Assembly (NCBI GenBank): GCA_041659065.1
Contig: JBAZYY010000004.1
Location: 2,406-66,405, forward strand
DNA length: 64,000 bases
Direction of reading: 5' to 3'
DNA from: Parcubacteria group bacterium
GTDB lineage: Bacteria; Patescibacteriota; Minisyncoccia; Moranbacterales; UBA11712
In this document: one piece after another, positions 35,760 through 61,761 of the stretch
Layout of the letters: every line of letters begins with the position of its first letter
Position numbering within the stretch: the first letter of the stretch is position 1
Position numbers and translations under genes: made by a program
The notes under the pieces: generated by a model
The model's input: only the letters and a program-made list of their open reading frames with translations
Told to the model about the DNA's origin: nothing
Database searches by the model: none

Positions 35760-36113
35760 GTGGTCTCCCCTGCATTCCGACGATGGGAGGCAATTTTGAA
35801 AACGGCGCAAGAAGTTGAAGAGATTCTGGAATGGTGTCTTGGAGACAGTGCTGTTCCCAGCTTCAAAGGTTATTTTCCTTTTCAGGTGTTGCTTGACCAA
35901 GGGAGAATAGCCGCATATTACACATCGATTCGTCCTATGTATAGCGGATGGGCTGATATAGCTTATTATGTCAACCAAGACGGCTTGCTCGAGCAAATCG
36001 GAATTGAAAACCCGCCCGCTCTCAACCCAGAAGAAGTTCTTTCTGAAAAAAACCTTCCGGACGGCTGGGAACCCGAACAGTTAAAGCCAAAGCAGAGAGA
36101 GTTTACGCCATAA
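35760..36113 (+). CDS. Hypothetical protein (GTG start)
   Basis: AGGAGG 8 nt upstream of GTG at 35760. No family recognised. Confidence 0.35.
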   Translation: MVSPAFRRWEAILKTAQEVEEILEWCLGDSAVPSFKGYFPFQVLLDQGRIAAYYTSIRPMYSGWADIAYYVNQDGLLEQIGIENPPALNPEEVLSEKNLPDGWEPEQLKPKQREFTP

Positions 36114-36221
36114 GGGGGCTGGTAATATATTCTCGAAGAGTATCGCTAGCCCCCCCCTTTTTTTTAAAAACTTTTCCAATACTAACTTTTCCTGACATTT
36201 AATATTAGGCTAGAAAAAAAT

Positions 36222-57831: not shown

Positions 57832-58824
57832 TTATTTTTTTATGCGAAGTGTTAACTTATGCGCATTCCCGTGCGAAAGCAATCCGAGATACGAGGCGAT
57901 TGATTCCGACGCGGAATTATTCTTTATTCTTTTCATCATCCTTTTCTTTGTGCTCGTCCGTAAAACTCTGTGATGCGGAAAATTGACCCAGCCGAGAAAA
58001 TCCACTCCGGAGGAAAAAGTTCTGACAAAAAATTTTTCAGGATGCAATGAAAGCGCCAATCTTCCATCCAGAAATTTCCCAATTCTGGGAATGAGATTCT
58101 CTAGATAAAATCTGTTTTTGTGAAGAATGACAAAGTCATCGGCGTAGCGGATATAATATTTTACTTTCAATATCCGTTTCATAAACTGGTCAAATTCGTT
58201 CATATAAATATTCACGAAAAGCTGGCTGGTGAGATTGCCGAGTGGCAGGCCGACGCCGATTTTGCCTTTCGCGCCAAAACTTTCAATCACCTGCGCCAAA
58301 AGCCACGAAACATCCTCGTCCGCGATATGTTTCGCCAGAATATTTTTCAAAATTTGATGGTTAATATTGGCGAAAAATTTTCGGATGTCACACTTCAAAA
58401 TCCAACAAGTTTTTGTGTTATTCTTGGAAACCCTCATTCCAAAACGCCGGAAACGCCTGATTGCCCGACGTGTCCCTTTCCCGATCCGGCAGGAATACGA
58501 ATCAAAAATGAACTTGCGGTCGAAATAAGAATACAAAATTCGGTAAATCGCGTGATGGACAAGCCGGTCGCGCACACTGGCTTTGTGAATGTCCCGCGGC
58601 TTCGGATCATTTATTTTGAAAGCCTGGTAGTCGCCATGCCGATAAGCTTTACTCGCGAGTTCACGGTGAAGGACGAGAATATTGTCTAAAAAATTCAGCG
58701 AAAATTCGGCCACATCTTTTCTTTTTCTTTTTCCGCGCAAAAACTCCCGCCAGGATTCGAGCAAATTTTCCACGGATATGATATTATCATAAGTATGATG
58801 AAGCCTTTTAATCCCCCCCCCCAT
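57832..58824 (-). CDS. DGR-type reverse transcriptase
   Basis: RT motifs 1-7 with catalytic YADD (IRYADDFVIL) and the DGR-RT hallmark LGNLTSQ in motif 4. GGAGGG SD before the ATG at 58824. A TR lies ~400 nt upstream on the same strand. Confidence 0.9.
   Translation of the reverse strand: MGGGIKRLHHTYDNIISVENLLESWREFLRGKRKRKDVAEFSLNFLDNILVLHRELASKAYRHGDYQAFKINDPKPRDIHKASVRDRLVHHAIYRILYSYFDRKFIFDSYSCRIGKGTRRAIRRFRRFGMRVSKNNTKTCWILKCDIRKFFANINHQILKNILAKHIADEDVSWLLAQVIESFGAKGKIGVGLPLGNLTSQLFVNIYMNEFDQFMKRILKVKYYIRYADDFVILHKNRFYLENLIPRIGKFLDGRLALSLHPEKFFVRTFSSGVDFLGWVNFPHHRVLRTSTKKRMMKRIKNNSASESIASYLGLLSHGNAHKLTLRIKK
58813..58822 (-). repeat. Homopolymeric tract C10 (G10 on the coding strand) inside the start of the RT ORF
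   Basis: Forward strand reads atCCCCCCCCCCat. The minus strand reads ATGGGGGGGGGGATT, encoding M-G-G-G-I. Confidence 0.9.
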
Positions 58825-58897
58825 TCCCTCCGGCAGAGCCTCGATTCTTCAGCGAATCAAAGAGGGATATTTGATATGGCTTTCTATTGTTCCGCAT

Positions 58898-59197
58898 ATG
58901 CAAAAGGGCGCGCGCTATACCATCGGCGCCAGAATTGAAAACAAATTTCTCGATTTACTGGAACTGGCGCATATCACTTACTTTTCCAAAAAAGAGGGGA
59001 AGATTGAAAAAATTTCCGATTGTATTTTTCTTTTGGATAAAATCAAATTTCTTGTTTCCGTTGCCTGGGATGGAAAATTGATTTCCAACCGGCATTTTGA
59101 GGAAATCGCCGCCAAACTTGATGAGACGGGCCGGATGCTATGGGGATGGAAGGAAAAAATAAAAAAGAGCCCCGAAAAGAAAAACCGCGATTTGTGA
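58898..59197 (+). CDS. Avd-like accessory (helical bundle) protein candidate, on the opposite strand to the RT and target
   Basis: 99-aa helical ORF (MQKGARYTIGARIENKFLDLLELAHITYF...ISNRHFEEIAAKLDETGRMLWGWKEKIKK). Its C-terminal helices resemble the four-helix-bundle/Avd family. It lies between the RT and the TR. Confidence 0.4.
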   Translation: MQKGARYTIGARIENKFLDLLELAHITYFSKKEGKIEKISDCIFLLDKIKFLVSVAWDGKLISNRHFEEIAAKLDETGRMLWGWKEKIKKSPEKKNRDL

Positions 59198-59217
59198 ACG
59201 CGGAAGAAAAAGAAAGC

Positions 59218-59349
59218 ACTTTCGGAGGCGGAAGACAAACTCATTGTCGAGATTCCACCTGTTCGATGGATTCGTCCAGTTGTTGTCAAGCCAAAAACCG
59301 TCGTCGTTCCGGTTCACGTTGAAAACGTTCAAGTCGCCGTCGGAGTCGA
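59218..59349 (-). repeat. DGR template repeat (TR), 132 bp
   Basis: Aligns to 59769-59900 with about 15 differences. Every difference is at a position where the TR coding (minus) strand has A. In the VR frame the TR would encode DGDLNVFNVNRNDDGFWLDNNWTNPSNRWNLDNEFVFRLRK, which is AAC-codon rich. Confidence 0.85.
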
Positions 59350-59766: not shown

Positions 59767-61761
59767 TTACTTGCGGAGGCGGAAGACAAACTCATGGTCG
59801 AGATGCCACCTGTTCGATGGATTCGTCCAGCTGATGCCAAGCCAAAAACCGTCGTCGCTCCGGCGCACGCGGAAAACGCTCAAGTCGCCGCCGGAGCCGA
59901 AAATCTGTTTCATGGCGATTCGCAAATACTCGTACATCGGCTGTTCTCTTTGGAAAACTTCTTCGTATTTCAGCCTCAAATGTGGTCCGACTTCCGGCGG
60001 ACAGAGTTCCAATCCCAATTCTTCCGCTCTCTTATATAATTCATCTGTAGTCGGATTTTCAGTGAATCCCAGATCCCTCACCTTGAGGCGAACTAGGTCG
60101 ATAGTTTCTGGATTTTTCAATCTTTCTTGGATGGAGACGGTGAAATCCTTGTGCTTCATCATGCTTTCGGCGTACGAACTTATTTGATAATTTCTGCCTT
60201 GCTCATCTTTTTTGTTTTCAATTTCTTTTTTCAGTTCTTCTTCCGTCATGCCGCCAATTTCGATTTTCCCTTGATCTATTTTGCCTTCAGGAAAAGAGGT
60301 ATAGATATGTTCAATATTGTATTTTTGGATCAGGTCGAAAATACCGGACTCCAATCTTCCGATATACGCTTTTGTATTTCCGGTGATATCCTCTTGCTTC
60401 CAGGCAATTTCTTCCGGTTGACATTCAAAAACAATCGGAGCGTCTTCTTTTGGCTTTCTGGTTTTTCGGATTTCCTCGATGCGGGGATCCTTTTGAAGGC
60501 CGAAATATTTGATTGGCCGGTCTATTTCATAAATAAAGACCAGCTCCTCTCGGCTTAGCGGAACTCTCGCGGATATCTTTTTGTCAATTGCCGTGAGAAA
60601 TTTCATATCCCGGTCAATTTCAAAAAATTCTTCGCCGCCGGGAAAAGTTTTCAGCTTATCGCTGATGATGTTCGATTCCTTGATGTATTTGTCAACATTT
60701 TCCTCCCATTCGATGCCGCGGACTTCCATCACTTTTTTGTCCTTTTCAACAACAACCACCCGGGGGATCGAAAATTGGCCGTCACGATCACGGGTATAAT
60801 AAATATGGAGATTGCCCGATTCAAGATATTGTCCAGCTATCTGCTCTCCGGCAATGCACCAGCCGGAACCTTTGCCCTGCAAAGTTTCTGTCAAATTTTT
60901 CGGTTCGCTGCCTTGCTCATAAACGACCCATTGGCCTTCCGTGATTTGCATTTCTTCTTCGCTGATGGGCGGAAGATATTCCTGACCCCAGCCGTATAAA
61001 GCGCGGAAATCTTTCTGTTCGAGGTGCTTTCGAAATGCTTGTCTGGCTTCTTCCGGAATATCATAGCGAAAACTTATGTCTTTATTTTCCGATTGCGCCT
61101 TATATGCCTTGGCGATAAATTCCAGCACCCGATCGTTGACTTCGGGAAACATTTTTACCGATCTCTGCTTTCCGGTTGAACGTTCGGGAAATTTACCGGA
61201 AATTCCTTTTTCTTTGTCTCCTTTTTTATATCGTTCCAATCGGAGCATGCCCTGAAACGCCCAGTATTTGAGATAATCGGGCAAATATGAAGATTTTTCC
61301 GAAGCCAGATAATCAATCCACTCTTCTAGAGATCCCTTTTGATCTTCTTTTGTCTGGACGAGATGCTCCAGCTTGATCTTTAGTTTTTGTTCCTCGGACA
61401 ATTCTTGCCAGTCTCCCGCTTCGCCGCGCGATCGAACCACCCGCATTTGAGCTTGCCAGTAGCTTTCAGGAATGTCTTCCACTCTGACAACATAAGAATC
61501 AATTAATATTTTCTTGAGAGCGTTAATGCCTCGTTTTCTATCTTTTTGGTCGTTGCGATCCATGATTTCCTTGAAACGGTCTAAGTAATTCTGAATTTGC
61601 GCTTCGAATTGATCAAGTTTCGGATATTTCGAATCAGCTGCTTCATGCGTTCTCTTTTCCGTCCGTTTTGCCGCCTTTTGCGCTTCGGGGCTTTTCGCGA
61701 GCAAGGGGAATCGCTCCTTGATAAATTTGGAATTTTGTTCGAATGAATCGTATTTTTCCAT
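59767..61761 (-). CDS. DGR target protein (664 aa), VR in the last ~43 codons; no obvious signal peptide
   Basis: Long ORF ending TAA at 59767-59769. Its C-terminus overlaps the VR. The N-terminal 600 aa are unannotatable and hydrophilic. Confidence 0.85.
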   Translation of the reverse strand: MEKYDSFEQNSKFIKERFPLLAKSPEAQKAAKRTEKRTHEAADSKYPKLDQFEAQIQNYLDRFKEIMDRNDQKDRKRGINALKKILIDSYVVRVEDIPESYWQAQMRVVRSRGEAGDWQELSEEQKLKIKLEHLVQTKEDQKGSLEEWIDYLASEKSSYLPDYLKYWAFQGMLRLERYKKGDKEKGISGKFPERSTGKQRSVKMFPEVNDRVLEFIAKAYKAQSENKDISFRYDIPEEARQAFRKHLEQKDFRALYGWGQEYLPPISEEEMQITEGQWVVYEQGSEPKNLTETLQGKGSGWCIAGEQIAGQYLESGNLHIYYTRDRDGQFSIPRVVVVEKDKKVMEVRGIEWEENVDKYIKESNIISDKLKTFPGGEEFFEIDRDMKFLTAIDKKISARVPLSREELVFIYEIDRPIKYFGLQKDPRIEEIRKTRKPKEDAPIVFECQPEEIAWKQEDITGNTKAYIGRLESGIFDLIQKYNIEHIYTSFPEGKIDQGKIEIGGMTEEELKKEIENKKDEQGRNYQISSYAESMMKHKDFTVSIQERLKNPETIDLVRLKVRDLGFTENPTTDELYKRAEELGLELCPPEVGPHLRLKYEEVFQREQPMYEYLRIAMKQIFGSGGDLSVFRVRRSDDGFWLGISWTNPSNRWHLDHEFVFRLRK
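59769..59900 (-). repeat. DGR variable repeat (VR) at the 3' end of the target gene
   Basis: Encodes GGDLSVFRVRRSDDGFWLGISWTNPSNRWHLDHEFVFRLRK. The residues that differ from the TR translation are exactly the Asn (AAC) codons of the TR. Confidence 0.85.

Follow-up and report, generated by a model that had tools for sequence, protein, structure and literature searches.

A length-variable simple repeat at the 5' end of a Patescibacteria diversity-generating reverse transcriptase gene: a candidate contingency tract

The 64,000-nucleotide stretch of Parcubacteria group contig analysed here (the window; positions are counted from its first letter) carries a diversity-generating retroelement (DGR), whose reverse transcriptase (RT) gene begins with an uninterrupted run of ten guanines. 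The RT open reading frame (ORF; 57832..58824, minus strand) encodes 330 aa from the ATG at 58824 and matches Pfam RVT_1 (E=1.3e-19); among 8000 homologues at E<=1e-20, the best 120 share 66-100% identity with it. Between the RT and the template repeat (TR), and divergent from the RT, lies avd (58871..59197, plus strand; PF22296, E=4e-11), which encodes the bAvd accessory protein and starts at a TTG with AGAGGGA just before it. The gene is thus inverted relative to the canonical avd-TR-RT order, and it is opposite in strand to the RT in every related locus with an avd match. The TR (59218..59349, minus strand, 132 nt) is 89% identical to the variable repeat (VR; 59769..59900, minus strand), which forms the 3' end of the target gene (59767..61761, minus strand; 664 aa, no Pfam match). 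The locus therefore combines a DGR-type RT, an adenine-specific TR/VR pair and an Avd protein, and it looks functional because all 14 of the 14 TR/VR mismatches fall at TR adenines. A pyrimidine-rich spacer (GCTTTCTTTTTCTTCCGCGT; 59198..59217, minus strand) runs from the TR 3' end to the avd stop; a TTTCTTTTCC-type spacer occupies this place in most related loci, is absent after the VR, and may belong to the DGR RNA downstream of the TR.

At the RT 5' end the minus strand reads CGGAGGGA-ATG-GGG-GGG-GGG-ATT-AAA-AGG. As a preliminary description of this DNA had noted without naming the strand, the G of the ATG and the nine that follow it make up a G10 homopolymer, a slippage-prone simple-sequence tract read directly at 58813..58822 of the minus strand (C10 on the plus strand). 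The ATG itself (58822..58824, minus strand) is the start annotated by NCBI and is in frame with the RT at G10, as it also would be at G7 or G13. The same description placed a Shine-Dalgarno (SD) sequence before the tract. The SD-like GGAGGG is indeed present (58826..58831, minus strand), but only A 58825 lies between it and the ATG, which is too close for canonical SD-start spacing. In a sister lineage at 79% identity (P0002, three assemblies), which has the same ATG+G9 start, GAGG abuts the ATG with 0 nt between them; at such distances the motif is poorly placed as a ribosome-binding site (RBS). The first canonical in-frame start 3' of the tract is the GTG of codon 18 (58771..58773, minus strand), from which JGI calls a protein of 313 aa (P0001). 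This call was at first suspected to reflect another tract length; it derives from one and the same contig as the 330-aa NCBI call, and the two differ in the choice of start.

The G10 run is real, is non-random and is no artefact. No other G or C run in the window (43% G+C) reaches 9, the next longest being one C8, and a model of independent, identically distributed bases predicts 0.003-0.03 runs this long (>=10) over 64 kb. The Logan assembly of SRR18595301 (L001) has G10 too and is 100% identical across the 750 flanking bases compared. The C8 is followed by T8 (C8T8 at 36150, within 36113-36165) and is intergenic between two plus-strand ORFs, at a site where GGGGGCT...AGCCCCC can pair; considered as a second switch, it was rejected because it looks like an intrinsic terminator, with a stem plus T-run. 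The plus strand of the window is compositionally asymmetric (T 19781 vs A 16501; C 15439 vs G 12279) and its G runs never exceed 5, which fits the location of most genes on the minus strand.

The tract is not peculiar to this genome. We gathered 80 metagenomic loci and 80 loci from GTDB species genomes, the latter mostly labelled as Patescibacteria or candidate phyla radiation (CPR) members (Paceibacterota, Nomura-, Magasanik-, Berkel-, Uhr-, Azam- and Saccharibacteria); 157 had sufficient upstream sequence. A perfect simple repeat lies 31-100 nt upstream of RT codon 18, between the divergent avd and the RT, in 150 of these 157 (~95%). Poly-G, the unit for which the preliminary description had suggested looking near the start of other DGR RTs, stands at this place in 109 of the 157 (G7-G13, mode 9-10), while 40 loci carry (GA)n of 9-37 nt and one carries (GT)12. 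Among the loci scored as repeat-less, several have G6 and one (L100) has G10 slightly further upstream. The 19.7 kb of control regions contain 143 such repeats, compared with 7 across 833 kb of flanking DNA, an enrichment of ~860-fold. The nearest RT relatives of the window (~74% identity) carry (GA)n instead of a G run; a G10 locus (L018) is placed among GA loci, and the (GT)12 locus among G loci. Interrupted tracts are rare, and repeats persist in RTs down to ~60% identity. The distance from tract to RT varies (31-100 nt), whereas that from tract to avd is near-constant, the avd start usually lying 37-48 nt away (48 nt in the window). Because place is conserved while unit and length turn over, this pattern is the signature of a contingency tract and not of a sequence-specific motif. 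In one 393-aa RT (P0130) the tract and N-terminal segment are duplicated, leaving two GGGG stretches and suggesting local rearrangement at the tract.

Tract length also differs between genomes that are otherwise nearly identical. Among the 12 assemblies listed for one strain of a JGI sample series (3300055469-3300059838), 7 have G13, 4 have G14 (the length that brings frame A, described below, into phase with the RT) and one has G15; the four members compared (L181, L182, L191 and L192) are identical at 950/950 RT bases downstream of the tract. Two pairs of close loci differ as G10 and G11, with ~94% identity over the first 600 nt downstream and 99% upstream. In clusters of proteins at 90% identity, the called starts fall in each of the three phases or the members vary in how many Arg-Glu repeats they have. 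Contigs tend to break here as well, 17 of 72 ends lying within ~110 nt of the tract vs ~2.7 expected. The length heterogeneity that had been proposed as a check thus appears among assemblies of relatives (G13/14/15, G10/G11), some of it perhaps through technical error at long G runs, but the five assemblies of the window's own lineage and its sister all have G10. Substitutions (T>G, A>C, T>A) cluster in the first ~25 nt 3' of the G13-15 tract, the next 950 nt being identical; they could be Illumina errors following a homopolymer or real mutation near G runs. Length differences in (GA)n are less exposed to poly-G sequencing error.

Upstream of the tract, a second reading frame on the minus strand (frame A; 58808..58897) opens at an ATG at 58897 and runs through the tract to a TAA (58810..58808) at G10, encoding MRNNRKPYQISLFDSLKNRGSAGGNGGGD before the stop. 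This ATG is conserved, lies antisense to the first avd codons and begins a peptide of the form MRNN.NPNQISLFDSLQNRG. The related loci fall into a subgroup in which the tract is >46 nt from codon 18 and a close subgroup that contains the window; frame A is open as far as the tract in 59 of 62 close-subgroup loci. Two repeat-less relatives, L193 (viral, 64% identity, same layout) and L130, have one continuous frame from the conserved ATG into the RT (MRNNIHPNQISIFDSIQNRSITQARNGRCHSTYNSIIS...), and because both read straight through, the tract appears to lie within the ancestral RT reading frame. In L130 a non-repetitive in-frame linker stands in place of the repeat. Furthermore, the peptide LFDSLQ[ND]R is kept in L055 and L126 despite multi-base synonymous swaps (CTC/TTG, TTG/CTC, CGA/AGG), and 59 of 92 G-type loci have a tract-end-to-RT-frame distance congruent to 1 mod 3 (p=2e-9). 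Taken together, these features make it likely that frame A, and with it the tract region, is coding.

The gene avd and the long form of the RT overlap head-to-head in all related loci (58871-58897 in the window, 27 nt), with the conserved RT ATG at 58897 antisense to a conserved avd His codon, so that each start lies inside the 5' coding or leader region of the other gene. On the avd strand (58795-58938, plus) the tract reads as poly-Pro, and C9 or C12 would, in silico, open an N-terminally extended Avd from an ATG at 58795 via this poly-Pro. JGI avd calls in G14 loci (L182, L185, L189) are 136 aa instead of 107 aa, and tract length may thus also affect Avd.

We simulated the effect of tract length on the window in silico. 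With G10 (also G7 and G13) the RT is in frame with ATG 58824, and frame A stops after 29 codons. With G9 or G12 the RT becomes fused to frame A from ATG 58897, giving a long form of ancestral type, while with G8 or G11 there is an in-frame stop upstream and no ATG, GTG or TTG before GTG 58773. For the window, the on/off switch that had been proposed from a one-base change after codon 4 therefore becomes one with three potential states. Nor does this frameshift extend to the clade as a general mechanism, since the RT of most relatives has its own ATG 4-60 nt 3' of the tract. Of the 68 unique loci in the >46-nt subgroup, 64 have a canonical RT start, usually ATG, 3' of the tract; in the close subgroup, 45 of 61 loci lack any canonical in-frame start between the tract and a conserved H-x-Y-x-x-I-I-S segment, which is clearly translated because its Ser codons alternate between TCN and AGY. 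Where there is a downstream RT start (79 unique loci), the gap between tract and start is always 4-64 nt, and a further SD-like motif lies within this gap at just 7 of these loci. Without any canonical start before the conserved N-terminus are 13-15 unique loci, and the RT ORF is intact in all of these (306-328 codons, 15/15). Intact RTs behind start-less phases are the expected signature of reversible OFF states; they also fit expression that does not depend on upstream starts.

We next consider what else the tract might adjoin or form. A promoter-like match (TTAAAA, 17 nt, GATAAT; 58783..58811, minus strand; consensus match only) adjoins it in the window and would begin transcription just before GTG 58773, 2 matches being present in the region vs 0.9 expected. 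By eye, many G tracts have a TGnTAAAAT-like (extended -10-like) motif 3-10 nt before them, and TTGCCA motifs are also near many, but a generic scan and inspection of the related loci by eye found no promoter motif consistent across subclades or properly spaced to the avd or RT starts. RNA folds of the control region were no better than shuffles in the RT sense or the avd sense (z = -0.8 and -0.2), and an Rfam search gave no match; in the avd-sense fold the complement of GGAGGG pairs with the avd SD. A stem formed by CUUUGAUUC and GAAUCGAGG was rejected, as a common C-to-A change breaks it without compensation. Two other pairings, of the tract as an anti-SD for avd and of the tract with the pyrimidine spacer after the TR, are possible in some loci and not general: a G-rich avd SD is missing from one locus (L061), and the (GT)12 locus offers its repeat nothing complementary to pair with. 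In 36% of G-type loci (L056, L061, L075, L063, L081, L117, L144 and others), vs 16% of shuffles and 4% of control windows, a stable hairpin of 6-11 bp comes to within 0-3 nt of the 5' end of the G run, its sequence differing between loci; the window has no such hairpin.

Several relatives do without the repeat. None was found upstream of the RT in 16 viral (IMG/VR) relatives (27-64% identity), five of which have a divergent avd. The P0032 lineage (L162-L170; 13 contigs read, 9 independent places shown identical) has no repeat, and the P0100 lineage (L171-L177; 10 contigs read, 7 independent places shown identical) has an interrupted GA tract only. The RT begins at a plain ATG in both; in P0032 frame A is broken by a stop and the RT begins MYNNIIS, and in P0100 the interrupted tract ends 3 nt before the ATG. 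These two multi-sample lineages were considered as a source of length heterogeneity and set aside: they have no perfect repeat, are invariant and serve as stable controls. That such lineages exist suggests that the tract is not an essential cis-element, which counts against a structural role and in favour of a regulatory one. Roux et al. (2021, PMC8144416) found the highest activity in viral DGRs, with Patescibacteria clade 2 significantly below average, and the latter is what frequent OFF phases would produce.

We postulate that the G10 run is a contingency tract in the 5' reading frame of the RT, gating its translation by frame, and that this architecture is clade-wide; we assign the proposal a probability of about 0.5. 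Judged from the sequences, the tract has the repeat length (above the slippage threshold of about 7-8 for a homopolymer) and, in silico, the placement that mark simple-sequence contingency loci, and related start-less loci keep an intact gene behind out-of-phase tracts. The ancestral full-length RT would have started at the conserved ATG (58897 here), antisense inside the first avd codons, and a short linker would have connected its N-terminal peptide of ~22 aa to the catalytic body. Within the cellular clade this linker would have become a perfect repeat, Gn, (GA)n or rarely (GT)n, whose length is altered by replication slippage so that the upstream starts shift relative to the RT body. A tract of G9 or G12 would then yield the long, ancestral-type RT, whereas with G8 or G11 the first canonical start would be that of codon 18. 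The outcome would be heritable, reversible and stochastic switching of RT supply, and hence of adenine mutagenesis in the target, among the cells of one population. Random on/off switching through slippage of the repeat is thus probable for the DGRs of this clade. We infer that slippage in this organism occurs at useful rates, that these starts are used and that the RT level limits retrohoming. A broader version, in which a stochastic switch across the clade (probably clade 2 of Roux et al.) set by a hypermutable repeat in the N-terminal extension of the RT, where avd and RT overlap head-to-head, toggles the RT between long, short and absent, lets only a subpopulation diversify at any time and explains the lower activity relative to viral DGRs, is offered tentatively and has somewhat less than an even chance of being correct.

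A number of observations weigh against gating by frame. In the assembled G10 state the RT would rely on a lineage-specific ATG that abuts the tract in a poor SD context. About two thirds of unique loci have an RT with its own ATG 3' of the tract, and a tract so placed cannot frameshift that ORF; it must act differently or not at all. Frame A and the RT are in phase in 18 close-subgroup loci, offset by +1 in 26 and by +2 in 18, so in-frame states are not enriched, which also fits an upstream frame that is irrelevant to RT expression. Codon-position entropy in the upstream peptide is lowest at position 2, but a synonymous-fraction codon test was not significant, with frame B above frame A, and the coding claim consequently rests on the in-frame fusions in repeat-less relatives and the deep synonymous swaps. 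The existence of repeat-less lineages with a simple ATG makes tract and upstream peptide appear dispensable. As for length variation, all five assemblies of the window lineage and its 79% sister have G10 (the window contig and the SRR18595301 assembly being perhaps not independent), and the G13/14/15 differences could be partly technical because the substitutions just 3' of the run resemble Illumina errors after poly-G. The phase-variable DGR switch suggested by the preliminary description is hence supported in part, by tracts conserved in position and variable in length and unit, by phase differences between near-identical strains and by intact out-of-phase RTs, and is qualified by the poor SD spacing, the three states and the five G10 assemblies.

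How, then, do other explanations account for the same loci? The tract could be a non-coding control element, either a purine-rich RBS or 5' untranslated region or a promoter shared by the divergent avd and RT, with its length tuning initiation. The downstream starts 4-64 nt 3' of the tract in 79 unique loci, few of which (7) have another SD-like motif, are in keeping with this, as are the P0100 tract ending 3 nt before an ATG, the near-constant distance to avd (37-48 nt) beside a variable one to the RT (31-100 nt), the promoter-like match adjoining the tract in the window and the TGnTAAAAT-like motifs near many G tracts. Yet the commonest gaps between tract and start, 13-19 nt, are wider than suits an SD, neither (GA)n nor (GT)n matches an SD well, and promoter motifs are inconsistent across subclades. 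In addition, the mod-3 bias and the in-frame fusions of repeat-less relatives argue that the region is or was translated, and what is conserved is perfect repeats, not merely purine-rich stretches. We regard such an element as unlikely, though it is the rival that we take most seriously, and the practical consequence would be similar: gating by frame and effects on initiation or transcription both make DGR activity phase-variable. Programmed recoding, in which RNA polymerase or the ribosome slips on the run, might instead supply a fixed, small in-frame fraction of RT from any DNA phase, DNA length variation being incidental. Slippage is known at G runs of this kind (9 or more). Uniform phases together with intact RT ORFs would follow, and in many loci a TAA or TAG right after the tract ends the upstream frame 3-7 nt past it in one phase. 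This is improbable given that tract lengths and units vary widely (GA 9-37 nt), unlike tuned signals, that no conserved stimulatory structure lies downstream and that a hairpin precedes the tract at no more than 36% of G-type loci; moreover, we know of no case in which (GA)n or (GT)n is an efficient site of transcriptional or ribosomal slippage.

The tract might also be a neutral by-product of mutation, tolerated where the RT has a flexible linker at its N-terminus or an untranslated spacer, kept by slippage dynamics and inherited with the cassette but with no adaptive switching. Repeat-less lineages, the lack of in-frame enrichment and the many loci with independent downstream starts would all be expected if so. 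We find it about as improbable as recoding, since the ~860-fold local enrichment leaves the repeats almost absent from 833 kb of the same genomes, they persist to ~60% RT identity with the unit changing repeatedly and the position not, tracts are long and perfect (G mode 9-10; GA up to 37 nt) with interrupted ones rare, and the RT is intact behind start-less phases. A structural cis-element of the DGR nucleic acids, pairing with the pyrimidine spacer or forming non-B DNA by a hairpin to serve cDNA priming or homing, is more doubtful still. The conserved TTTCTTTTCC-like spacer between TR end and avd stop, the excess of hairpins adjoining G-type tracts (36% vs 16% and 4%) and the purine bias of the tract on the RT/TR strand speak for it, but close relatives including L193, with the same layout, are wholly without a tract, the control region of the window folds no better than shuffled sequence and has no Rfam match, and the (GT)12 locus lacks a complementary partner. 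In cryo-EM of the Bordetella DGR the essential RNA elements lie just downstream of the TR (bioRxiv 10.1101/2023.10.23.563531); the tract, ~400 nt from the TR, is thus unlikely to be part of the core template RNA. In the same work the template-primer duplex, which Avd braces, is contacted by an extension at the RT N-terminus, which indicates that the N-terminal region of the RT is functionally important. Finally, an artefact of assembly or sequencing, such as the poly-G of two-colour chemistry, is scarcely credible. A related contig (L135) does begin with G26, and the tract marks the end of several contigs; in the window, however, it is internal to a 96.5 kb contig, a second assembler gave it too, it is present in ~150 loci drawn from many projects and in three sister-lineage assemblies, and the homologous position is (GA)n in 40 loci. 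The preliminary description had listed an assembly artefact among the outcomes that would refute it, and these data speak strongly against one.

The control of DGR activity in nature is largely unknown, and constant mutagenesis of a working ligand-binding protein is costly. If the frame-gating proposal is right, most cells in a clonal population of a genome-reduced CPR bacterium would stay stable and a few would try out variants of the target, and the lower apparent activity of the Patescibacteria DGR clade compared with viral DGRs (PMC8144416) would have a mechanism. It would also extend contingency loci to CPR bacteria and to retroelements, for which such second-order control of evolvability would be new. 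Since tract phase is readable from metagenomic reads, it can be compared with VR diversity in existing time series. For annotators, it would carry a warning of systematic errors in the RT starts called for this clade; on the present gene NCBI and JGI disagree (330 vs 313 aa).

Both mechanisms, DGRs and repeat-based phase variation, are known, but their pairing appears undescribed: a full-text literature search found no paper linking DGRs with homopolymeric tracts, simple repeats or phase variation, in line with the preliminary description, whose author knew of no DGR gated in this way. The closest parallels are the intragenic poly-G/C loci of Campylobacter jejuni, Neisseria and Haemophilus, whose translation is phase-variable. 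As here, a perfect homopolymer of ~8-13 G stands close to where the ORF begins, its place is conserved across orthologues and out-of-phase alleles keep an intact ORF; length polymorphism among near-identical strains would be a further common trait, seen in our case in assemblies of related lineages. The present case differs in its uncultivated Patescibacteria host, in that the gene is a mutagenic RT and not a surface or modification gene, and in having three potential states, with two upstream starts in different frames, as deduced from sequence alone. The hifA/hifB fimbrial switch of Haemophilus influenzae depends on (TA)n in overlapping divergent promoters and resembles our locus in that a simple repeat occupies the short gap between divergent genes acting together; here, by contrast, promoter hexamers are not consistent, the evidence favours a translated tract and the units are G, GA and GT. 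In phasevarions, built on phase-variable DNA methyltransferase (mod) genes, a slippery repeat also toggles an enzyme that itself creates population heterogeneity, a second-order control, but the output in our case would be targeted hypermutation of one gene instead of epigenetic regulation of many. Programmed slippage sites, as in IS3-family transposases and dnaX, similarly join a short upstream ORF to an enzyme ORF in another frame through a homopolymer with a stop closely after it, whereas our tracts are much longer, length-variable and sometimes dinucleotide, and are polymorphic in length at the DNA level. The DGR of Bordetella phage BPP-1 (mtd-avd-TR-brt) shares the DGR-type RT, bAvd, the adenine-specific TR/VR pair and a VR at the 3' end of the target; unlike in BPP-1, avd is inverted here, between TR and RT and head-to-head with the latter, and the RT has an additional N-terminal peptide overlapping avd in antisense and a simple repeat in its 5' region. 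To our knowledge, no such tract has been described for BPP-1. Lastly, the contingency loci of coliphages T2 and T4 (bioRxiv 10.1101/2025.10.21.683753) also employ hypermutable repeats as bet-hedging devices in mobile or viral systems, but the distribution here is the reverse, in that the viral relatives of this DGR are without the repeat and the cellular ones carry it.

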